36,154 nucleotides of DNA from Candidatus Omnitrophota bacterium (GTDB lineage: Bacteria; Omnitrophota; Gorgyraeia; Duberdicusellales; 4484-171): contig JAQUOR010000001.1 in assembly GCA_028717025.1 (NCBI GenBank), positions 1 to 36,154 on the forward strand. Reading direction: 5' to 3'. The stretch's first letter is position 1, and each line of letters starts with the position of its first letter. Below the pieces are notes generated by a model. It saw only the letters and a program-made list of their open reading frames with translations. It was not told the DNA's origin and searched no databases. This document shows, piece by piece, positions 1,094-31,530 of the stretch. A program made the position numbers and the translations under genes.

Positions 1094-1564
1094 CTACACG
1101 ATCGCAATTCTTCCTGTTCGCACCAACTCTTTAATGCCGAAACGCTCCATGGTCGTCAAAAAATGGTTAATCTGCTCCTGGTTGCCTACCGCTTCGACAA
1201 TGGCAACCTCAGCCTTACATTGGATCACCTTGGCAACGAATTTGTTTAAGGCAGCTTCTAACTTTGCTTTCTCTTTTGCCGGACAGACAACTTTGGCCAG
1301 AACCAATTCCCGGTCAATATATTCTTTTTTCGTAAAATCGGTCACCGTGATAACATCGATTAATTTGTTAAGCTGCTTTTTTATCTGTTCCAGGATCGTT
1401 GCATCTTTAGCGTCCACTACCATAGTCATATAGGAAATTGTGGGATCGAGCGTTTCACTCACTGCAAGCGATGCAATATTATAGCCGCGTGCGCTGAAAA
1501 GTCCGGCGACACGCGCCAATACGCCGAATTTGTTCTCAACCAATACTGATATAATATGTTTCAT
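1094..1564 (-). CDS. ilvN: acetolactate synthase small (regulatory) subunit
   Basis: 156 aa. The N-terminal ACT domain (HIISVLVENKFGVLARVAGLFSARGYNI) is typical of AHAS small subunits. The gene lies between ilvB and ilvC and has a GAGG RBS. Confidence 0.9.
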   Translation of the reverse strand: MKHIISVLVENKFGVLARVAGLFSARGYNIASLAVSETLDPTISYMTMVVDAKDATILEQIKKQLNKLIDVITVTDFTKKEYIDRELVLAKVVCPAKEKAKLEAALNKFVAKVIQCKAEVAIVEAVGNQEQINHFLTTMERFGIKELVRTGRIAIV

Positions 1565-1601
1565 TGACTAGCCTCAAACGCTAATGACCGCGAATTGAAT
1601 G

Positions 1602-1627
1602 CGCGAATTGCCGCTAATACATTCGCG
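1602..1627. repeat. hairpin CGCGAAT-TGCCGCTAATAC-ATTCGCG (copy of the 25215-25244 element)
   Basis: It matches 25217-25242 at 24 of 26 positions. Further CGCGAAT/ATTCGCG words lie at 1589-1595 and 1657-1663. Confidence 0.85.
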
Positions 1628-1665
1628 TAAATGAGCGTTTTCTCAAATTAGCGAAAATTCGCGTT

Positions 1666-3333
1666 TTACGCAAGGCCTCCGGAAAGCATCTTGTTGATGG
1701 CTTCTCCTGCCGGCACCATGGGAAAAACGTTCTCCTCAGGCTCGACATGGATATCAACAAATACCACATTGTCTATCGAAATTGCTTTCTCAAGGGCACG
1801 GCGTACGTCATCTTTTTTAGTGACGCGTAAACCAACAGCTCCATAACTTTCCGCCAGCTTTACAAAATCCGGGGCAGTAATACAGGTATGAGAATACCGG
1901 CGCTTATAGAACAGCTCCTGCCATTGGCGCACCATTCCCAAATATCCATTATTGAATATTATCACTTTTACATTTATCTTATTGCACACACAGGTTGCCA
2001 GTTCTTGAATATTCATCTGGATAGAACCGTCACCGGCGATATCGAACACCTGTTTCTTTGGATATGCGATTTTTGCGCCCATCGAAGCGGGAAAACCAAA
2101 ACCCATCGTGCCTAAGCCCCCGCTTGAGATAAATGTACGCGGGGTAAGATATTTATACCATTGCGCCGCCCACATCTGATGCTGACCGACTTCGGTCGTA
2201 ATTATTGCGTCTCCTTTGGTGATCTCGTAGAGTTGCTCCATGATATACTGAGGTTTTATTTTATTGCCATCCTTATAGCTTAAAGGATGCTTCTTCCTCC
2301 AGGATTCGATAGTCTTGAGCCACTCGCGGGTTTCGGGAACCTTTTTTATTTCCTCTAAGAGTTGGCCTAAAACATTTTTGGCGTCGCCCACAATGGGGAT
2401 ATCCACTTTTATATTTTTACTTATTGAAGCAGGATCGATATCGATATGGATCACCTTAGCTCCCGGAGCAAAGGTATCTACTCTGCCCGTTACTCTATCA
2501 TCAAAGCGCGCACCTATGGCAATAATTAAATCGGACTCCATAGTAGCATGATTCGCGTATCCGGTACCATGCATACCCAGCATACCCAAGAAAAGTTCGT
2601 GGGTTGCAGGGAAAGCCCCTAGCCCCATCAAGGTAACCGTCACCGGCGCGTTAAGTTTCTCAGCCAGCTCTTTTAATTGGTGATGTGCGCCGGAAGTGAT
2701 AACTCCTCCACCAACATAGAGGAGCGGCCGCCTGGCAGCTGCTATCAATTTTGCTGCTTTCTTGATCTGTCCGGGATGACCAAAACATGTCGGTTTGTAA
2801 CTGCGGATATTAGCCTCTTGCGGCCAAACAAATTCTGTATCTTGCTGCTGCACATCAACCGGCACATCAATGAGTACCGGCCCGGGTCGCCCCGTTGAGG
2901 CAATATAAAACGCTTCGTTAATAGTTTTGGCTAATTCCTTAATGTCTTTTACGAGGAAATTATGCTTGGTAATCGGCCGCGTGATACCGGTCACATCTGC
3001 CTCTTGAAACGCATCATTACCGATGAGAGAAGTCTTTACCTGGCCGGTAATTGCTATCATCGGGATTGAATCCATATAGGCAGTAGCTATGCCTGTCACC
3101 AGATTAGTGGCTCCCGGACCCGAAGTAGCAATACAAACCCCTACTTTTCCGGTAGCGCGGGAATAGCCGTCCGCAGCATGAGCCGCAGCCTGTTCGTGAC
3201 GGGTCAGGATAAATCTGATGGGTGCGTCATAAAGAGCGTCAAAGAGAGGCAAAACCTGGCCTCCCGGATAGCCAAAAATGACCTCCACTTTCTCCTTAAG
3301 CAAGCTTTCTATAAGTATTTGGGCACCTTTCAT
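1666..3333 (-). CDS. ilvB: acetolactate synthase large (catalytic) subunit, ThDP-dependent
   Basis: 555 aa with AHAS-like N-terminus (VIFGYPGG), FAD region and ThDP-binding motif [24 protein letters not shown]. Confidence 0.93.
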
Positions 3334-3382
3334 ACGAATAAGTGTTTAATGCATTGGATTAAAGCGTAATGACACCACGAAA

Positions 3383-3505
3383 CTGCAAAAGGCCGCAAAG
3401 ACTAATCGCAAAAGCGCAAAAGGTTTTTGCGATCTTTGCGGGGTAATACCGCTAAAACACAAAGTTTTATTTTGCGGTTTTGCGTTTGTGCTTTTGCGGT
3501 GCAAA
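3383..3505. repeat. GCAAAA/TTTTGC word-built hairpin cluster in the ilvB leader
   Basis: On the plus strand CTGCAAAAGG, CCGCAAAG, CGCAAAAG and CGCAAAAGG are followed by TTTTTGCG, CTTTGCGG, TTTTGCGG, TTTTGCG and CTTTTGCGG. The core stem pairs CGCAAAA 3415-3421 with TTTTGCG 3425-3431. Confidence 0.8.
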
Positions 3506-3548
3506 ATAACACGCTCTTCAAAAAGCTAAGTAAATATTATGAGTGTAA

Positions 3549-3576
3549 ATTATACCACTGAAGATTAAAAAAACAA
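3549..3576 (-). promoter_or_regulatory. candidate ilvBNC promoter TTGTTT-N16-(TGG)TATAAT
   Basis: On the minus strand the extended -10 TGGTATAAT is at 3557-3549 and the -35 at 3576-3571. This gives a leader of about 210 nt before ATG 3333. Confidence 0.45.
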
Positions 3577-3662
3577 CAAGTTACTTATAGCAAATAGGCC
3601 TAAATAAAAGCTGTTTTTCCCGCATAAAAACCAAATTTCAAGCTCCAAATATTTTTGCTCCG

Positions 3663-3718
3663 TTCATTGGGATCTATTTATTGGAATTTATTGGTGATTT
3701 GAGATTTGGAATCTGAGG
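3663..3718. repeat. copy of the 23545-23605 element
   Basis: Shared blocks are TTCATTG, TTGGAATTTATT, GTGATTTGA and GAATCT. Both copies begin directly after the stop codon of a minus-strand gene (3722 and 23606). Confidence 0.7.
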
Positions 3719-3721
3719 ATA

Positions 3722-5311
3722 TTAAGGCATTTCCTTCAAGAGAGCGTCTATTTTCTTGACTTCTTCTTCGTAACCTTTTTCCTTAAATAATTCCCTTGCT
3801 TTCTGAAGGCTGCTCTTTGCTTCGTCATATTGTCCCGAAAAGGCATAGGCATAGCCTATGCCTGCGTATGCTTCGCCGTAATTCGGAAAACGCGCTATGA
3901 CTTTTTTAAAAGCTTCGATTGCCTCTTCGTATCTCCCAAGTGCATTGTATACAAAACCCATGCCCCGCTCTGCCTCCATATTGTCGGGATTTAATTTTAG
4001 TGCCTCGGTATATTGCAAAAGCGCATCTTCTGATTTTCCTATGCTGACGTACATATCGCCCAGTCCCACATACGCGTCGACATATTGTGGAGCGATCTGC
4101 AGCGCTTTCTTAAAAGATGTGATTGCTTCATGGGGATTATCCTGCGCTGCGTAGAGATAGCCGAAAATCCGATACGCTTCGGCAAGATTAGGGTCTATCG
4201 CGAGAGCTTTTTTTAATTCTCCTGTTGCTTCCGTAAATTTCTTATTCTCAACAAAAGTAACCGCCCGTTGCAGACAATCCTGTATGTCTTTCATTTTCCC
4301 AAGAGAAAGTCCCTTCGATGAAACAGTGCCCGGGCTCAAAGAAACTGACGGGCCCTTTTGGGTGGACGGCGGCAGGATGTAACTGAAAGACTGGATAATT
4401 TCTTTGGCCTGGGTTACCAGTGTTTCAATCTCCTGGTTAAAACGCTGGACGAGCTCGTTTTGCTTACGGATAATATCCGCGCCTACTCCTTGATTATCTT
4501 TTTCCAATATCGGCTCATACTTTGTGTATCGTAAGCGCACAGTGAAAAAACGCGGATCTTTGCCTTTAGATAGATAGGCAGGAGAAAAATAGTAATAATC
4601 CTGGTAACTTGTAGTTGCCCCCTGTACGTTTTTACCGCTTCCTGCAACATTAGTAAGAACAAAGGGAAGCTTACCGGTATAACGTACAAGATACCCGGGT
4701 TCTTTTGCGTTTTTAAGGGCTCCTTCGGACTCTTTCTTCAACTCCGGGGGAACAGAAAACATTTTCTGCAACTCGCTTATATCTTTCGTTTTCTCTATTT
4801 CCTCATTGCGCAAGGTTCTACGGTAAAGCTCAATGGTAACCAGCTCGCGTTTTTTACCTTTCGGCCGAAACCCCATGGAAGAATCCTTCCTTTCGGTTAC
4901 CGGTATCGTTTCCCAATCTTTTGGGTATTGAAAAAGATATCCCCACTCCCAGTTTCTAAATGTCGGTTTTTCTTCCTGCGCAGAAAGCGCGACCGTACTG
5001 CTTTGTTCGGCGGCGACAGGCACTATCTCTTTACCATCGATGGCTTTGATCTGATCAAAATAATAGGTAATCGCTATACCGCCGATATCCAGCTTAATGA
5101 AAGAATCGCTCTTCTCGATGATTTTCCCTTCAACGGTTTTTCCGCTTTTTAAGCTGATGATTTCCGCATATACAGGAAGATTGTATGCGACGGCGGCAAG
5201 AAGGATCAATATTATTTTTTTCACGAGAAAAGTCTGATGCATCGTTGCTCTGATTATTTTTTTCGGTCCCATTGCTGTATAGGTATGAGATTTAACTTCG
5301 GGACGCTCCAT
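3722..5311 (-). CDS. secreted/membrane-anchored TPR-repeat protein
   Basis: It has a hydrophobic signal-like segment (KKIILILLAAVAYNLPVYAE) and about 5 C-terminal TPR repeats (AEAYRIFGYLY.., YVDAYVGLGDMY.., GEAYAGIGYAY..). The start is uncertain (ATG at 5311, 5272 or 5242) and none has a clear RBS. Confidence 0.7.
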   Translation of the reverse strand: MERPEVKSHTYTAMGPKKIIRATMHQTFLVKKIILILLAAVAYNLPVYAEIISLKSGKTVEGKIIEKSDSFIKLDIGGIAITYYFDQIKAIDGKEIVPVAAEQSSTVALSAQEEKPTFRNWEWGYLFQYPKDWETIPVTERKDSSMGFRPKGKKRELVTIELYRRTLRNEEIEKTKDISELQKMFSVPPELKKESEGALKNAKEPGYLVRYTGKLPFVLTNVAGSGKNVQGATTSYQDYYYFSPAYLSKGKDPRFFTVRLRYTKYEPILEKDNQGVGADIIRKQNELVQRFNQEIETLVTQAKEIIQSFSYILPPSTQKGPSVSLSPGTVSSKGLSLGKMKDIQDCLQRAVTFVENKKFTEATGELKKALAIDPNLAEAYRIFGYLYAAQDNPHEAITSFKKALQIAPQYVDAYVGLGDMYVSIGKSEDALLQYTEALKLNPDNMEAERGMGFVYNALGRYEEAIEAFKKVIARFPNYGEAYAGIGYAYAFSGQYDEAKSSLQKARELFKEKGYEEEVKKIDALLKEMP

Positions 5312-5424
5312 GCTTACTGTTGTTATTTTTTGGGATACCAGAATGGTCGCTTACCTTTTCTGATGCTCAATGCGGGCTTACTCTACGTGAACAATACTAC
5401 CGGCAAGCAGGCTCCAACGTCGTT

Positions 5425-7002
5425 CTATGCGTTTGCTTTGACGTCTTTAAGAAGTTTGTACTCGATGGAATCGGCAAGCGCGTTATACGAAGCTTCAATA
5501 ACATTGCCTGAAACACCTATGGTGGTCCAGCTTTCTTTTTCATCCTGTGATTCGATAAGCACGCGCACTTTTGCGGCGGTCCCCTCTTTCGCATCGAGAA
5601 CGCGCACTTTAAAGTCGCTTAAATGCATCTTTGAAAGTGCGGGATAGAAATCGCGTAACGCGTGTCGCAATGCACTATCCAGAGCGTTGACCGGCCCGTC
5701 ACCTTCCGAAGCGCTGTGCCGCAGCACCCCTTTGACTTTGATTTTTATCGTTGCTTCAGAAATAAGCCTGCCGTCGTCGCGTTTTTCGACAATGACCCTA
5801 AACCCGAGAAGTTCAAAAAATTTTTTGTATTTTCGAAATTCACGCTCGAGCAAAAGCTTAAAAGAAGCTTCGGCTGCTTCAAATTGATACCCTTGGGCTT
5901 CCAAGTCTTGAATCAATTTATGGATTTTCTTTGCGCGAGGTGATTTTTTATCCAAGTCAAAAGCCAGTTCTTTCGCTTTTAAAACAAGCGACGATTTCCC
6001 CGCCAGTTCTGAAACCACAAATCTGCGATGGTTACCGACCAGCAGCGGATCGATGTGTTCATAAGCAAGCGGATTTTTAAGCATCGCGTCGATATGGATA
6101 CCGCCTTTATGGGCAAATGCACTCCTTCCAACGAACGGAGTCGCATCATGATGTATCATATTGCTGACTTCGCTGACGAAATAGGAAAGTTCCGTCAACT
6201 GCCCCATATTCTTTTCGCATGAGACGTGACAGCCCATTTTTAATACAAGCGCCCCTAAAACAGTAACGAGATCGGTGTTCCCGCAACGCTCGCCATAACC
6301 GTTCATCGTACCCTGGATATGCACGCACCCTTCTTCGATACACGCCAGGGAATTCGCTACTGCCATACCCGTATCGTTATGACAATGCATACCGAAATTG
6401 CCTAACGATATCACCTCTCTGACCTCCTGAGCTATCCGCGTTATTTCCCAGGGTAATGTGCCGCCGTTAGTATCGCAAAAAATAACAAGATGTGCCCCGG
6501 CGTCCAGAGCCGCTAAAATTGTTTTTATGGCATATTCCGGGTTGGCTTTGTAGCCGGTGAAAAAATGTTCTGCGTCATAGAATACTTTTTTGCCATGTTT
6601 TTTTAGAAACGCAACACTCTCCCTGATGATTCTTAAATTATCATCGAGACCGATACGGAGCACTTCTTTTACCTGTAAATCCCAGGTTTTTCCGAAAATC
6701 GTCACATATTCGGTACCGCTTTTAAGTAAACTGGTAAGGTTTTTATCGGTATGCGCCGGACGAGCCGGATGCGCAGTTGAACCAAAAGGAACCAGATGCG
6801 CATTGCGTAAGGGATGTTTTCTAAAGTACGCGAAGAACTCCGTGTCTTTGGGGTTAGAATAGGGCCAGCCGCCTTCAATAAAATCAACACCGAAGCTATC
6901 CAGGCGTTTTGCGATACTGATTTTATCCTGTAGTGAGTATGAGATACCTTCAGTCTGTGCGCCGTCACGTAATGTCGTATCGTAAATAAATATCTTTTCC
7001 AT
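5425..7002 (-). CDS. cimA: citramalate synthase-type LeuA homologue (2-isopropylmalate/citramalate synthase family)
   Basis: Motifs seen: IYDTTLRDGAQTEG, HCHNDTGMAVANSL and a C-terminal LeuA-dimerisation-like domain. This resembles the LeuA-related (Geobacter-type citramalate synthase) clade. ATG 7002 has an AAGGAAG RBS. An alternative ATG at 7071 forms an ATGA overlap with the upstream stop. Confidence 0.75.
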   Translation of the reverse strand: MEKIFIYDTTLRDGAQTEGISYSLQDKISIAKRLDSFGVDFIEGGWPYSNPKDTEFFAYFRKHPLRNAHLVPFGSTAHPARPAHTDKNLTSLLKSGTEYVTIFGKTWDLQVKEVLRIGLDDNLRIIRESVAFLKKHGKKVFYDAEHFFTGYKANPEYAIKTILAALDAGAHLVIFCDTNGGTLPWEITRIAQEVREVISLGNFGMHCHNDTGMAVANSLACIEEGCVHIQGTMNGYGERCGNTDLVTVLGALVLKMGCHVSCEKNMGQLTELSYFVSEVSNMIHHDATPFVGRSAFAHKGGIHIDAMLKNPLAYEHIDPLLVGNHRRFVVSELAGKSSLVLKAKELAFDLDKKSPRAKKIHKLIQDLEAQGYQFEAAEASFKLLLEREFRKYKKFFELLGFRVIVEKRDDGRLISEATIKIKVKGVLRHSASEGDGPVNALDSALRHALRDFYPALSKMHLSDFKVRVLDAKEGTAAKVRVLIESQDEKESWTTIGVSGNVIEASYNALADSIEYKLLKDVKANA

Positions 7003-14419: not shown

Positions 14420-14452
14420 GCGGATTCCCGCAAATCTAACACAGATTTACGC
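14420..14452 (+). repeat. dispersed element GCGGATTCCCGC-N12-GATTTACGC
   Basis: The same 12-mer and 9-mer flanks occur in inverse orientation at 20887-20925 with an N13 core. A collapsed copy, GCGGATTTACGC, lies at 29822-29838. Confidence 0.8.
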
Positions 14453-20803: not shown

Positions 20804-21088
20804 ATGTGCCTCCTTTTATATAGATACGGATATATGCGCCTGCCGGCAAGGCAGGGAGTTGAACGCGGATAGACACAGAACCTTAAGCGTAAATCCACGC
20901 ATGTTACCGCGGGAATCCGCTTCTAAAGTCTCATTTCACATCCGAGACAACGTTGCTGATGATATCTGATGATAAGCGCTCGTTATATATAGGAACAATG
21001 CGCTCTTTTTTGACTCGGTTAAAAGGCAAGAAACTTTTCGCAGGTATGCTTTTAGACGCAACAATAACGTGTAACGTACCTATTAATT

Positions 21089-21127
21089 ATTTACCCTGCC
21101 GGAAAAAATCCGGCAGGGTAAATTTTT
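21089..21127. terminator. strong hairpin with T-run on the plus strand, downstream of the DUF2934 gene
   Basis: The arms TACCCTGCCGG (21092-21102) and CCGGCAGGGTA (21110-21120) are extendable to 14 bp. TTTTT follows on the plus strand, and only ATAATTAAT follows on the minus strand. Confidence 0.5.
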
Positions 21128-21164
21128 GATCGCTACTTTTTTTAAAAAGCTAAAAAATGATTAG

Positions 21165-21350
21165 CTATTTGCACTTCGAGCGAATTTCTTTTTCAGCCTG
21201 GAGCCAAATTGTCAGATCCTGGCCCTTAGGCTTACCTTTGCTTTCCCACAGGTAATACGCTCTGTCTCTGATCATTTGGGCTAATTTTGCATTGTCACAG
21301 CATGCAGAACTTTTCGAACTTGTGCTTTTTGAATTTCTTACGAATCCCAT
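21165..21350 (-). CDS. DUF2934-family small protein
   Basis: 61 aa. The motif IRDRAYYLWESKGKPKGQDLTIWLQAEKEI matches the DUF2934 signature. GGAGG RBS. Confidence 0.75.
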   Translation of the reverse strand: MGFVRNSKSTSSKSSACCDNAKLAQMIRDRAYYLWESKGKPKGQDLTIWLQAEKEIRSKCK

Positions 21351-21416
21351 GACCCACCTCCTCTTCTTATCACTGCAGCCTTTCGGCCGTTTCTTTAAAA
21401 AAACACACCTCTTACG

Positions 21417-28094: not shown

Positions 28095-28613
28095 TCAATT
28101 ATTTATCTTGGTTTTTATCTCGTCAATCTTCTGCAGCAGGCGGCCAAGTTCAACCGGGAATGAAGAAGCACTCAATAGAATTTTTTTAGTTTTTCCGTTA
28201 ACGGTAACTTTTAGCTGATCACCCCGATACCCTAAAGGGCTCGCACTTCCAATATACTCGTCGTTAAAACGAAAAATATTCATCTCTAGAATCATGTCCT
28301 TAAACGCTTTGAGTTCCTGGGCAGAAAGTTGTCCGCTTTTTACGATCGTCTTTGGTTTATTAGAAGAAAACATGGAGTAGCGCTCTTTAGAGTAACGATC
28401 TTTATTGAAAACGGTAACGTTACCTGTTGAAGCGATAAAAATATCGTAATCCTGAGTAAGTGCCTGCTTTTTTGTGGAATAAAAAACATCGATATTGTAA
28501 TCTTGGGCCGTCACCAAGCGTTCACGCACGTATGCGCTCTGTGCCGTGGGTAGGTAAAACGAGAAGGATGAGGCAAGAAAAAGATAGATTATAAGATATT
28601 TTTTCGACATCAT
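28095..28613 (-). CDS. secreted hypothetical protein
   Basis: It has a signal peptide (MMSKKYLIIYLFLASSFSFYLPTAQSA). The start is placed at ATG 28613/28610 because promoter P1 (-10 at 28659-28664) lies inside the longer ORF-track version. Confidence 0.6.
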   Translation of the reverse strand: MMSKKYLIIYLFLASSFSFYLPTAQSAYVRERLVTAQDYNIDVFYSTKKQALTQDYDIFIASTGNVTVFNKDRYSKERYSMFSSNKPKTIVKSGQLSAQELKAFKDMILEMNIFRFNDEYIGSASPLGYRGDQLKVTVNGKTKKILLSASSFPVELGRLLQKIDEIKTKINN

Positions 28614-28658
28614 CGTGTGTATCTTTGAAGGGTAAAGCATCGACAAAATTTCATAATC

Positions 28659-28686
28659 ATTGTAACCCACAGGGAATAACTGTCAA
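28659..28686 (-). promoter_or_regulatory. promoter P1: TTGACA-N16-TACAAT
   Basis: On the minus strand the -35 TTGACA is at 28686-28681 and the -10 TACAAT at 28664-28659. This is near-consensus. Confidence 0.65.
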
Positions 28687-28716
28687 GATTACTTTTAACA
28701 AAGAGGCTTAAAATTA

Positions 28717-28744
28717 ATTGTATCCGCGCAGGGAATACTGTAAA
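28717..28744 (-). promoter_or_regulatory. promoter P2: TTTACA-N16-TACAAT, a duplicate of P1
   Basis: On the minus strand the -35 TTTACA is at 28744-28739 and the -10 TACAAT at 28722-28717. It shares the spacer core GT(T)ATTCCCTG with P1. Confidence 0.55.
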
Positions 28745-28775
28745 GTACTTTATTCTTCTTTCTTCTGACTTTTTT

Positions 28776-29160
28776 CGCCTCAGAAAGAGGCGCACTGACG
28801 CAATTTATCCAGAGGGATAATACCGACGCAATACCTTTAAGCGTCGGGTATATAATCCCAGAAGGCGGACACTGCCGCAATCCCTTGTCCAGAAGGACAA
28901 TACCCGCACAATTCCGCTAAGTGCGGGGTATTCTAAGCGTCAGGTGCTTTAAGCGCCGGATACTGCTTAAGGAGATAACGCCTGCCGCTAAAGGATATGG
29001 CAGTGTGCACTTTCTGTGACAAGCGCACAGGCCGCTCTGCCGAGAAGACGGCGTATACCTTGCCACATTGGAATGGCAAGTACGCGCTTTCCGCGCTGCC
29101 CGCCAATCCGTTTTGGCGAGGTGCCGATTCGGCCGGGTGTCCTTTAGCGCTATAACGCAT
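28776..29160. ncRNA. candidate structured non-coding RNA / hairpin island (strand and ends unknown)
   Basis: At least 10 short perfect stems lie in 385 nt. Examples: CGCCTC/GAGGCG 28776-28792, CTTGCCA/TGGCAAG 29059-29080, CGCCAA/TTGGCG 29101-29118. The region is visibly more G+C-rich than its flanks and shows covariation between the tandem units. Confidence 0.35.
28793..28930. repeat. two tandem copies (period 77 nt) of a two-hairpin module
   Basis: Unit 1 (28793-28850): CACTGACGCAAT, TTATCC-AGAG-GGATAA, TACCGACGC-AATACCTTTAA-GCGTCGGGTA. Unit 2 (28870-28930): CACTGCCGCAAT, TTGTCC-AGAA-GGACAA, TACCCGCAC-AATTCCGCTAA-GTGCGGGGTA. Confidence 0.85.
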
Positions 29161-29188
29161 TATACTGGCTGAAACCTAAGCCCCTGCG

Positions 29189-29752
29189 TTAAAACTTAAT
29201 CTCCACGTCTTTTTTATCATCTTCCGCGACCTTAAAAAGCTCCTCTTGTCTAAAACCCATCATATTTGCGATAATAACATCGGGAAAAGACTGGATCTTT
29301 ATGTTGTAATTATTCACGCTCTCGTTGTAAAATTCACGCCTGTCTGCAATCTCGTTTTCAAGCGAAGAAATCCTGGTCTGTAAATGCATAAAATCCTGAT
29401 TTGCCTTTAAGTCGGGGTAATTCTCCGCTACTGCAAAAAGCGTCTTTAACGCTCCGCTTATCATGGTATCTGCCTGTGCTTTATCCTGAATGTTTTGGGC
29501 ATTCTGGTAGACGCTGCGCGCTTTTGTAATCGTCTCAAGCAGCTCCTTTTCGTATTTCATGTACCCTTTGCAGACCTCGATAAGCTTAGGCAGCTCATCA
29601 TGACGCTGCTTAAGTAACACCTCAATGTTTGCCCAGGCTTTCTTTAAATTGTTTTTAAGCCTGATTAAACCGTTGTAGATTCCGACAAAATATCCAAAGA
29701 AAATAAGCAATAAAAATATTACTACGCCTAAAATCAAAAACCCTGCTACCAT
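29189..29752 (-). CDS. lemA: LemA family protein
   Basis: It has an N-terminal TM helix followed by the LemA core (YNGLIRLKNNLKKAWANIEVLLKQRHDELPKL..NYPDLKAN..RREFYNESVNNYN). ATG 29752 is preceded by AAGGAGG. Confidence 0.88.
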   Translation of the reverse strand: MVAGFLILGVVIFLLLIFFGYFVGIYNGLIRLKNNLKKAWANIEVLLKQRHDELPKLIEVCKGYMKYEKELLETITKARSVYQNAQNIQDKAQADTMISGALKTLFAVAENYPDLKANQDFMHLQTRISSLENEIADRREFYNESVNNYNIKIQSFPDVIIANMMGFRQEELFKVAEDDKKDVEIKF

Positions 29753-29842
29753 AAACACCTCCTTTAATAATAGAAGCGAAGCACCGCAGATTGAAACGCG
29801 GAACAACGCGGAAAATTTTCAGCGTAAATCCGCTTCTATGGC

Positions 29843-31484: not shown

Positions 31485-31530
31485 GATAAACCTCCTTAAT
31501 GAATCCCGCGTTTATAGCGGGACGAATTAA

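Follow-up and report, generated by a model that had tools for sequence, protein, structure and literature searches.

An intergenic hairpin island beside lemA in a Candidatus Omnitrophota genome, probably a composite array of an undescribed interspersed repeat family

Introduction

What kind of element fills positions 28776-29160 of a 36,154-nt stretch of DNA from Candidatus Omnitrophota bacterium (GCA_028717025.1, contig JAQUOR010000001.1, positions 1 to 36,154, forward strand; hereafter the window) is the question addressed here. The island lies between lemA (stop 29189) and a gene for a DUF6438-like secreted protein (start about 28613), both on the minus strand, and the gene row GIDE-LemA-DUF6438-DUF4912-GH57 is conserved around it. 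A first interpretation made from the letters alone (the sequence-only reading) proposed a structured small RNA (sRNA), with a structured DNA repeat as the alternative. Computational comparison with related genomes favours the alternative. The island is probably a modular array resembling repetitive extragenic palindromic (REP) sequences and bacterial interspersed mosaic elements (BIMEs), BOX elements or miniature inverted-repeat transposable elements (MITEs), and composed of units of an interspersed hairpin-repeat family that had not been described before. Most likely, the array is selfish or neutral at the DNA level.

Structure of the island

Direct reading of 28400-29500 recovered all hairpin strings and coordinates given by the sequence-only reading. 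Two similar units are visible, which in plus-strand orientation consist of leader-like strings (CACTGACGCAAT, 28793-28804; CACTGCCGCAAT, 28870-28881), small hairpins (TTATCC-AGAG-GGATAA, 28805-28820; TTGTCC-AGAA-GGACAA, 28885-28900) and large hairpins (TACCGACGC-AATACCTTTAA-GCGTCGGGTA, 28821-28850; TACCCGCAC-AATTCCGCTAA-GTGCGGGGTA, 28901-28930). Both large hairpins have 9 bp, the same extra G and an 11-nt loop. The compensated differences reported between the units, which affect a single small-stem pair and three large-stem pairs, were found again, as were the outer pairing of GCGTCAGGTG (28937-28946) with CACTGACGC (28793-28801), which has the same extra G, and the series of downstream stems up to 29133. 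In the tandem duplication (28793-28850 and 28870-28930), the offset of 77 nt holds for the supposed leader, while the hairpins lie 80 nt apart, which implies a 3-nt insertion or deletion. A repeat search returned a 47-nt direct repeat of 74% identity at a spacing of 80, and Tandem Repeats Finder (TRF) made no tandem-repeat call for the two-unit duplication. The string CACTG(A/C)CGCAAT, taken at first for a conserved leader, is none; on the minus strand it reads AUUGCG(U/G)CAGUG and forms the 3' arm of an outer hairpin that belongs to this family.

The island is also as hairpin-dense and G+C-enriched as had been stated. For a 401-nt region, the folding energy is -173.8 kcal/mol on the plus strand (shuffles -130.1 +/- 6.0, z = -7.2) and -166.5 kcal/mol on the minus strand (z = -5.7), and G+C peaks at 0.55, compared with ~0.40 in the flanks. 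Among the 17 intergenic spacers of the window, that of the island has the highest G+C (0.49) and the strongest folding z, and many of the others are also more structured than shuffles (z -2 to -5).

A dispersed hairpin-repeat family

The family was first seen through a short BLAST of the island against the loci compared, which produced matches of the same architecture in other spacers of one of them (L004). Described on the gene-sense strand, which is the minus strand of the window, each unit has a big hairpin of 29-30 nt with 9 bp, one bulged C, a conserved base YACC...GGUR and a conserved loop YUUAANGGWAUUG, in which GG is followed by U about as often as by A. The second part of the unit is a 5-6-bp hairpin with a CU-rich loop of the YUCU type, usually ending in ...CAA. 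A regular expression for the hairpin signature matched 23 times in the loci compared, against 2-10 times in block shuffles, and many more times in longer pieces of those contigs.

A covariance model (CM R1), built from 16 copies, detected two strong minus-strand copies in the window (63.7 and 58.9 bits) and several weaker pieces on both strands. In a related metagenome-assembled genome (MAG; GCA_043823745.1), of which 27.7 kb were searched, namely 13.5 kb designated L044 and a second contig, L067, the model found 13 copies (10 and 3, respectively), all in gene sense. Those in L044 form arrays of 1-3 in the spacers upstream of the genes for NifU, desulfoferrodoxin (Dfx), ferritin and LemA, with one more after a MiaB-like gene. 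In L067, a six-unit array precedes an ACT-domain/beta-glucosidase/patatin operon, three of its units being recognized by the model and three more by eye; the arrays of the two contigs thus hold 1, 2, 3 or 6 units. A further unit is located in the lemA leader of L043, and copies were also found in L041 and L046. No unit was detected in about 390 kb of other DNA, where no score exceeded 21 bits in unrelated viral contigs (177 kb), a more distant Omnitrophota relative (41 kb) and loci of other phyla, and a BLAST of the island against plasmid and phage collections gave no match. The units form a dispersed family that is confined to a narrow clade of Omnitrophota.

Two pattern searches gave matches that were discarded. 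A loop-plus-arm pattern matched 20 times in the viral contigs by chance, the best match scoring 17 bits with the covariance model and none being a unit. A metagenome scan with the 3' hairpin GAGGCGAAAAAAGTCNNANGAAAG had its sole match in L040 (ERZ1090865 contig), without hairpin or synteny; the matching tract at 4340-4363, AAAAAAGTC..GAAAG, has different neighbours and probably arose by chance.

The big helix (helix 1) is 98.9% paired in 22 distinct copies, and in eight of its nine pairs both partners have changed. Its covariation score of 0.38 compares with 0.18 in shuffles (0/500 reach 0.38) and <=0.14 for slid controls. The stems covary while the hairpin base and the loop stay constant. The earlier claim that structure rather than sequence is conserved is thus borne out across the whole family, and this structural conservation is a property of the repeat family, not of a single gene. 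Wobble pairs over both helices (G-U 11 vs A-C 8) are uninformative as to the strand, and no consistent complementarity that would allow kissing or a pseudoknot between big and small loops was noted among the copies inspected by eye.

Turnover between relatives

The lemA-DUF6438 spacer measures 575 nt in the window, 395 nt in L041 (98% LemA identity to the window), 349 nt in L002/L046 (92%), 340 nt in L004/L044 (80%) and 215 nt in L001 (92%), where the island is absent altogether. In L041, the flanks are near-identical to those of the window (~97%) and the array is rearranged: an 87-nt block and both tandem units are missing, and other pieces are found instead. L002 shares with the window only a core (...GUGCGCUU..CAGAAAG.GC..ACAC.GC..AUCCUUUA.GC.GC.GGCGUU..CUCCUUAAGCA...) and an end hairpin, and L004 carries unrelated CACGAAT / ATTCGTG and GACGT repeats at the orthologous position (3650-3820, equivalent to L044 9650-9820). 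The number and order of units differ between close relatives, and such instability of the spacer is not the behaviour expected of a dedicated sRNA gene.

Mixed orientations occur only in the spacer of the window, L041 and L046, whereas all 13 model-detected copies and the three by-eye units of L044 and L067 are direct and on the same strand. The more distant relative L068 (JGI 3300045144, 1365-5562) has the same FUR-NAD_binding-(rubrerythrin)-NifU-Dfx-ferritin-VIT1 row, with spacers of only 19-40 nt at these gene junctions, and neither GIDE-LemA-DUF6438 genes nor hairpin units were found there. Long, structured spacers are thus a trait that is derived in the clade to which the window belongs.

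Putative insertion sites and nesting

Units are placed exactly between TCATTAAA (leader TCATT(A/G)AA) and the Shine-Dalgarno (SD) sequence GGAGG, or they occupy the loops of other units. In L046, the lemA leader is empty (...CACGCGCTCATTAAA^GGAGGTAGAATATG, i.e., ...GCTCATTAAA^GGAGG), and that of L044 has a 42-nt unit exactly at the caret. In a second pair, the ACT leader of L067 is empty and three units occupy the corresponding point of the paralogous Dfx leader in L044. The leader-type site recurs in the big-hairpin loop, YUUAAAGGUAUUG, and units nested in such loops are found at L044 313-389 (GCGCUUAUA^unit^GGUAUCGCGC) and L067 5027-5108 (GCGCUUAAAG^unit^UAUUGCGCC). A loop with the sequence GAAUCG^G exists in three states: empty in L041, filled by the 87-nt block in the window and filled by a different 57-nt unit in L046. 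Altogether, the events recorded comprise two pairs of an empty and a filled leader at TTRAA^GGAGG and four apparent insertions into loops near A^GG or G^G; no target-site duplication was seen, and the array ends (TCATTRAA on one side, GGAGG on the other) have no shared terminal modules. The unit behaves as a discrete insertion/deletion unit, and the family is unusual in that its units seem to prefer the leader/SD junction and their own loops.

At three positions in L044 (9073-9100, 6125-6150 and 5020-5045), the last small hairpin has a competitor, since its CU-rich stretch (UUUCU, UCUCU) could instead pair with the neighbouring SD. For lemA of L044, this alternative pairing extends over the AUG as well. 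The two predicted folds exclude each other, as in a translational switch.

Proposed mode of spread

According to the explanation preferred here, the units would spread at the DNA level, in the manner of REP/BIME, BOX or MITE elements, by inserting next to a TTAAA^GG-like site. Every unit would carry this insertion site again in its own loop, and this additional copy of the site would account for nested and tandemly stacked units, for their gene-sense orientation and for their placement against the SD. The driver would most likely be a trans-acting, hairpin-recognising enzyme such as an HUH/Y1 transposase. Transcription of the island, if any, would occur by read-through from lemA, and the resulting transcript would have a very stable 3' untranslated region (UTR), which could slow 3' exonucleases or stall RNA polymerase.

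Several observations weigh against this explanation. No HUH/Y1 transposase is present among the open reading frames (ORFs) of the window, those of >100 aa all being housekeeping genes, although no dedicated search was made. Within the 36 kb, the model finds units at this one locus only, and the family may therefore be rare in this genome. The insertion point is not base-exact: leaders have A^GG, some loops have G^G, and the variation amounts to 1-2 nt. Insertion and precise deletion would be distinguishable only with an outgroup for each site, which makes the insertions putative. Helix 1 is almost free of mismatches (G-U 3 and A-C 2 in ~190 cells) and thus holds no strand information. Finally, all arrays of the related MAG are in gene sense, most abut an SD and their CU-rich hairpin can pair with it, which would also fit a selected role in cis-regulation.

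Alternative explanations

The last point leads to the strongest rival, which we nevertheless consider unlikely: the units might be selected cis-regulatory modules of translation control, e.g., thermosensors or protein-responsive elements, in which the loop would serve as a binding site and the CU-rich hairpin would compete with the SD. The array of the window would then be either a duplicated or decayed set within the 3' UTR of lemA or a section of a long DUF6438 leader produced by read-through. In L044, L067 and L043, all six arrays are in gene sense and five end directly at GGAGG-N6-ATG; however, orthologous leaders in the window, L046, L001 and L068 do without units. The SD-abutting arrays precede the genes for NifU, desulfoferrodoxin, ferritin and LemA; most of these are iron and oxidative-stress genes, and a FUR gene lies next to them. 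Units are also found before iron-unrelated genes, namely the CDP-alcohol phosphatidyltransferase and ACT/beta-glucosidase operons. The constancy of loop and hairpin base above covarying stems suits a binding site, yet nested insertion destroys precisely this conserved loop in the outer unit, which would be odd for such a site. Predictions of SD accessibility in five leaders are mixed: with the UUUCU/UCUCU pairing, GGAGG is mostly paired in three of them and free in two. Moreover, unit copy number changes between near-identical strains, and the array of the window has no SD beside it, lies upstream of the promoters of the next gene and has units on both strands.

A more far-reaching idea combines mobility with regulation, and we likewise consider it unlikely. 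The units could be miniature mobile hairpin elements of a novel type, which home to the leader/SD junction (TTAAA^GG), stack and nest via the target in their own loops and bring an anti-SD-like, CU-rich hairpin to the ribosome-binding site, rewiring the translation of stress genes in this Omnitrophota clade. Such an element might be a domesticated control module or a parasite of ribosome-binding sites, driven by an enzyme acting on single-stranded DNA (ssDNA).

Clearly less probable still is the stand-alone, trans-acting sRNA favoured by the sequence-only reading, either a CsrA/RsmA-type sponge displaying GGA motifs or an anti-SD RNA displaying CU-rich loops. The island is very stable and rich in hairpins, its minus-strand loops include GG-containing ones (UUAGCGGAAUU, AACGGA) and CU-rich tetraloops (CUCU, UUCU), A(R)GGA strings occur on the plus strand, and the number of hairpin units varies among relatives, as does the number of hairpins in sponges of the CsrB/RsmZ type. 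However, the plus-strand GGA motifs sit in stems, not in loops. The tandem units are minus-strand units: with CM R1, their hairpins reach about 64 and 59 bits on that strand and only 5.9 and 4.6 bits (about 6 and 5) on the plus strand, so that a plus-strand sponge would use the wrong strand for them. About half of the family loops have GGU in place of the GGA that CsrA needs, and no csrA/rsmA is encoded within the 36-kb window. In related genomes, the island is absent (L001) or heavily rearranged (L041), and its units are embedded in mRNA leaders at non-orthologous sites.

Searches for known RNAs point in the same direction. The sequence-only reading had suggested an Rfam scan and a covariation check; the former was negative and the latter revealed covariation across dispersed copies. 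With Rfam 15, the window had no match at the gathering score, and at E <= 10 the region 28550-29250 had only chance matches (E 3-7), of the snoRNA and intron kind; neither CsrB, RsmX/Y/Z nor any other family came up that would support an sRNA. No match was obtained at E <= 1 on L044 250-9200, including curated riboswitches, leaders and thermometers, and ARAGORN found no tRNA or tmRNA. A consensus scan detected neither a promoter upstream of the island on either strand nor an intrinsic terminator, the promoter-like sites nearby being the two downstream ones of the DUF6438 gene and a third, weaker one inside lemA on the plus strand. Two candidate signals were rejected. The end hairpin GCCUC-UUUCU-GAGGC is no terminator on either strand: on the plus strand the T-run comes before the hairpin, and on the minus strand the run behind the hairpin consists of A. 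A conserved TATAAT after the lemA stop (29158-29163, minus strand) lacks an acceptable -35, and the scan made no promoter call for it. Thus, the island is not supported as a dedicated sRNA gene. It had been conceded from the outset that a match to a known repeat or mobile-element relic would speak against an sRNA; in spirit this is what was found, since the island is a repeat, albeit of a family not described before.

That the conservation reflects a small-protein gene, either a plus-strand ORF of 52 aa (28997-29155) or a minus-strand ORF of 75 aa (28933-29160), is hardly credible: the plus-strand ORF does stay open in L041 across an in-frame 87-nt indel and a C..FC.KRT.RS-like string is common to the translations of the window and L046, but its ATG is replaced by ACG in L041, where an in-frame stop lies immediately upstream, the reading frame of L046 has a different end, and the shared residues fall in the nucleotide-conserved hairpin core. 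An exhaustive phmmer search with the plus-strand ORF against 1.84 billion representatives (the minus-strand ORF was not searched against any protein database) returned nine weak, multi-stretch matches to long unrelated proteins (best E 2.7e-8) and no small-protein family.

Anatomy of the array and gene context

The array is best understood as at least eight copies or fragments of a modular hairpin repeat of ~42-54 nt, which are arranged in tandem, nested in each other and located on both strands. Described along the minus strand (gene sense) from 5' to 3', they follow the order M1, M4, M5 and M6, the last enclosing M7, an orphan arm and M8 (Table 1).

Table 1. Units of the composite array and neighbouring features, with positions in the window
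Feature	Positions	Strand	Description
Composite array of hairpin-repeat units	28776-29160		Bordered by the lemA stop (29189) on one side and by an A/G-rich UP-like tract and the DUF6438 promoters on the other
Outer unit M1	29026-29139	-	5' arm and loop start ACACCCGGCC-GAAUCGG (29139-29124), 3' arm GGCCUGUG (29033-29026); split by the 87-nt block
87-nt block	29038-29124		Within the M1 loop (GAAUCG^G); absent in L041; alignment columns 92-178
Partial unit M2	29099-29121	-	CCUCGCCAA-AACGGA-UUGGCGGG; CM R1 8.2 bits
Unit M3, plus orientation	29053-29098	+	UACCUUGCCA-CAUUGGAA-UGGCAAGUA and GCGC-UUUCC-GCGC; CM R1 21.4 bits, local E 2e-5; regular-expression match
Core unit M4, opposite orientation	28976-29026	+	Big hairpin CCUGCC-GCUAAAGGAUAU-GGCAG(UG) and UUUCU small hairpin
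Orphan 5' arm and loop start M5	28947-28962	-	UAUCCGGCGC-UUAAAG; repeat family D3
M6, 5' arm	28937-28946	-	CACCUGACGC; pairs with 28793-28801 with the bulged C of the family
M6, 3' arm and small hairpin	28776-28801	-	GCGUCAGUG (28793-28801), CGCCUC-UUUCU-GAGGCG (28776-28792), then A6GUC
Unit M7 (unit 2 of the sequence-only reading)	28880-28933	-	UACCCCGCAC-UUAGCGGAAUU-GUGCGGGUA and UUGUCC-UUCU-GGACAA; CM R1 58.9 bits
Orphan 3' arm and small-hairpin-like piece	28856-28881	-	AUUGCGGCAGUG and UCCGCC-UUCU-GGGA; partial model match at 28856-28867
Unit M8 (unit 1 of the sequence-only reading)	28800-28853	-	UACCCGACGC-UUAAAGGUAUU-GCGUCGGUA and UUAUCC-CUCU-GGAUAA; CM R1 63.7 bits
lemA	29189-29752	-	Pfam LemA, E 1.2e-54; array starts 28 nt past the stop codon
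DUF6438-like secreted-protein gene	28095-28613	-	Context
Two tandem sigma70-like promoters of the DUF6438 gene	28659-28744	-	TTTACA-16-TACAAT and TTGACA-16-TACAAT; consensus scan

Comparison with the relatives clarifies several of these pieces. M1 is unsplit in L041 (1278-1327), where it scores 40.3 bits, and the block that splits it in the window contains M2, M3 and a small hairpin, GCCG-UCUUCU-CGGC. According to the alignments, M4 is the part common to the window, L041 and L002/L046; it scores 5.6 bits in the window, 20 bits in its L046 orthologue and 15.6 bits in L041, in all cases on the antisense strand. The counterpart of M5 is complete in L041 (UACCCAGCGC-UUAAAGGAAUU-GCGCCGGUG). The loop of M6 encloses M7, the orphan 3' arm with its small hairpin (28881-28856) and M8, a nested topology that recurs at the L044 and L067 sites named above, and the small hairpin of M6 is the conserved end hairpin found also in L002/L046. 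The orphan 3' arm can pair over a long range with 28999-29019 (inverted repeat I1, 21 nt, 81% complementary). The big hairpin of M8 shares an identical stretch of 28 nt with L044 4940-4985, which is a non-orthologous site.

The tandem promoters of the DUF6438 gene (28744-28717 and 28686-28659) are similar to each other and conserved in all relatives compared (L001, L002, L004 and L041). Because they sit downstream of the island on the gene-sense strand, the island is not the leader of this gene. Just upstream of them, the A/G-rich, UP-element-like tract (28745-28775) is kept even in the relative without the island.

Further leader and spacer elements

Many genes of the clade have a common leader layout, (C/T)AATTCG - variable hairpin - (T/C)TCATTRAA - GGAGG - N6 - ATG, as exemplified by 29750-29790 and 31485-31530 (both minus strand) in the window, L046 7205-7262, L067 5375-5452 and L041 600-670. 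The hairpin part differs between orthologous leaders, and the leaders therefore also turn over quickly. Another dispersed leader element may be represented by GCGGATTYMCGC, which occurs three times in the window (14420-14431 on the plus strand, 20909-20920 and 29822-29833 on the minus strand) against an expectation of 0.01; all three copies are located in intergenic leaders, each followed within ~25 nt by GGATTTACGC- or CCGCGTT-like pieces. A further repeat family is found at L044 5267-5370 and L067 5126-5280, where TAATGAGACTTACRCTTTTTCAAGCTTYAAGCGCGAAAAAGTGTG is followed by tandem copies of the 25-mer TAGCCCAACAGGGCATCCTGGTGGA, two in L044 and four in L067. The copy in L067 includes the apparent last codons of NifU, which suggests a segmental duplication of a spacer.

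Two other spacers of the window also deserve mention. The apparent 613-nt spacer 20804-21416 contains a 61-aa DUF2934-type ORF (21165-21350, minus strand) that is annotated in L046, L067 and L068, and once this ORF is counted, the spacer to the ACT gene is really ~360 nt. Upstream of the acetolactate synthase gene (3334-3721, minus strand), short CGCAAAAG / TTTTGCGG direct and inverted repeats are present (TRF rows 3407-3500); this spacer is structured (z -3.2 and -2.4) and may be an ilv operon leader or attenuator, or another repeat.

Implications

If the interpretation as a repeat array is right, a family of interspersed hairpin repeats is described here for the first time in Omnitrophota, a phylum represented almost entirely by MAGs, and this finding explains the long, G+C-rich intergenic spacers of this clade and their instability between strains. 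The apparent preference for the leader/SD junction and for the own loop offers a concrete, testable model for the nesting of repeats and for possible effects on translation, and the covariance model can be used to annotate and mask units in related MAGs. As a more general caution, hairpin density and compensatory changes between tandem copies are insufficient to call an sRNA gene.

Comparison with known systems

REPs are palindromes of 20-40 bp, many of which are transcribed as RNA elements, and they are defined by an unpaired GTAG or CGTC tag at one end (PMC3733652). The units resemble REP, BIME and REPIN elements in being short, imperfect palindromes (the big hairpin has 30 nt) with an extrahelical base, in their intergenic position and mosaic arrays and in the covariation of stems within the family, REPs being often contained in mRNAs. 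In contrast to these elements, the units have no GTAG/CGTC tag at their ends, the flanks in all aligned copies being ..A^YACC and GGUR^UU.. (the caret here marks the unit boundary), they are mostly direct and tandem instead of inverted dimers, and each includes an additional small hairpin. Their position in the related MAG is upstream of genes and against the SD, that of REPs mainly downstream of genes. REPs are further typified by many copies in a genome and by a RAYT gene that goes with them; a RAYT partner was not identified for the units. On two defining points, the tag and the inverted-dimer organisation, the units fall outside the REPs.

BOX elements are modular, with a strain-variable number of boxB modules, are predicted to fold when transcribed and have been judged parasitic yet able to affect neighbouring genes (PMC3049150). 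The close likeness to these elements of Streptococcus pneumoniae (boxA-boxB(n)-boxC) lies in the modular build, in tandem internal modules that vary between strains, larger BOX arrays varying more, in the independent stem-loops predicted upon transcription and in the lineage-restricted distribution. No boxA/boxC-like terminal modules or terminal inverted repeats were seen in the arrays of units, however, and there is no sequence relationship; the units also nest in each other's loops and prefer SD-adjacent sites.

The miniature elements derived from IS200/IS605 (PATE-like) share with the units the hairpins and perhaps also insertion by a short specific sequence, the lack of a visible target-site duplication and the fixed orientation. 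This comparison builds on the details known for IS608. The units differ in being only ~45 nt long and in an insertion point that is not base-exact, no TnpA was found among the ORFs of the window, and the logic of a cleavage site and guide sequence is putative in their case. Two accounts describe ssDNA hairpins and their loops as natural substrates in systems of the HUH/IS200/IS605 type (PMC6006769, PMC3333891).

The resemblance to CsrB/RsmZ lies in the many short hairpins, some of them with GGA loops, and in hairpin numbers that vary among relatives. The units differ in having no Rfam match and no promoter or terminator of their own, in GGU being as frequent as GGA, in their position inside mRNA leaders at many loci and in their absence from a close relative. 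Mycobacterial interspersed repetitive units (MIRUs) are tandem units of 40-100 bp that lie between cistrons, oriented with transcription, and vary in copy number between strains, and in these respects they are matched by the units described here. MIRUs are not defined by hairpins and contain short ORFs overlapping the stop and start codons on either side, whereas the Omnitrophota units are self-folding and are located just 5' of the SD.

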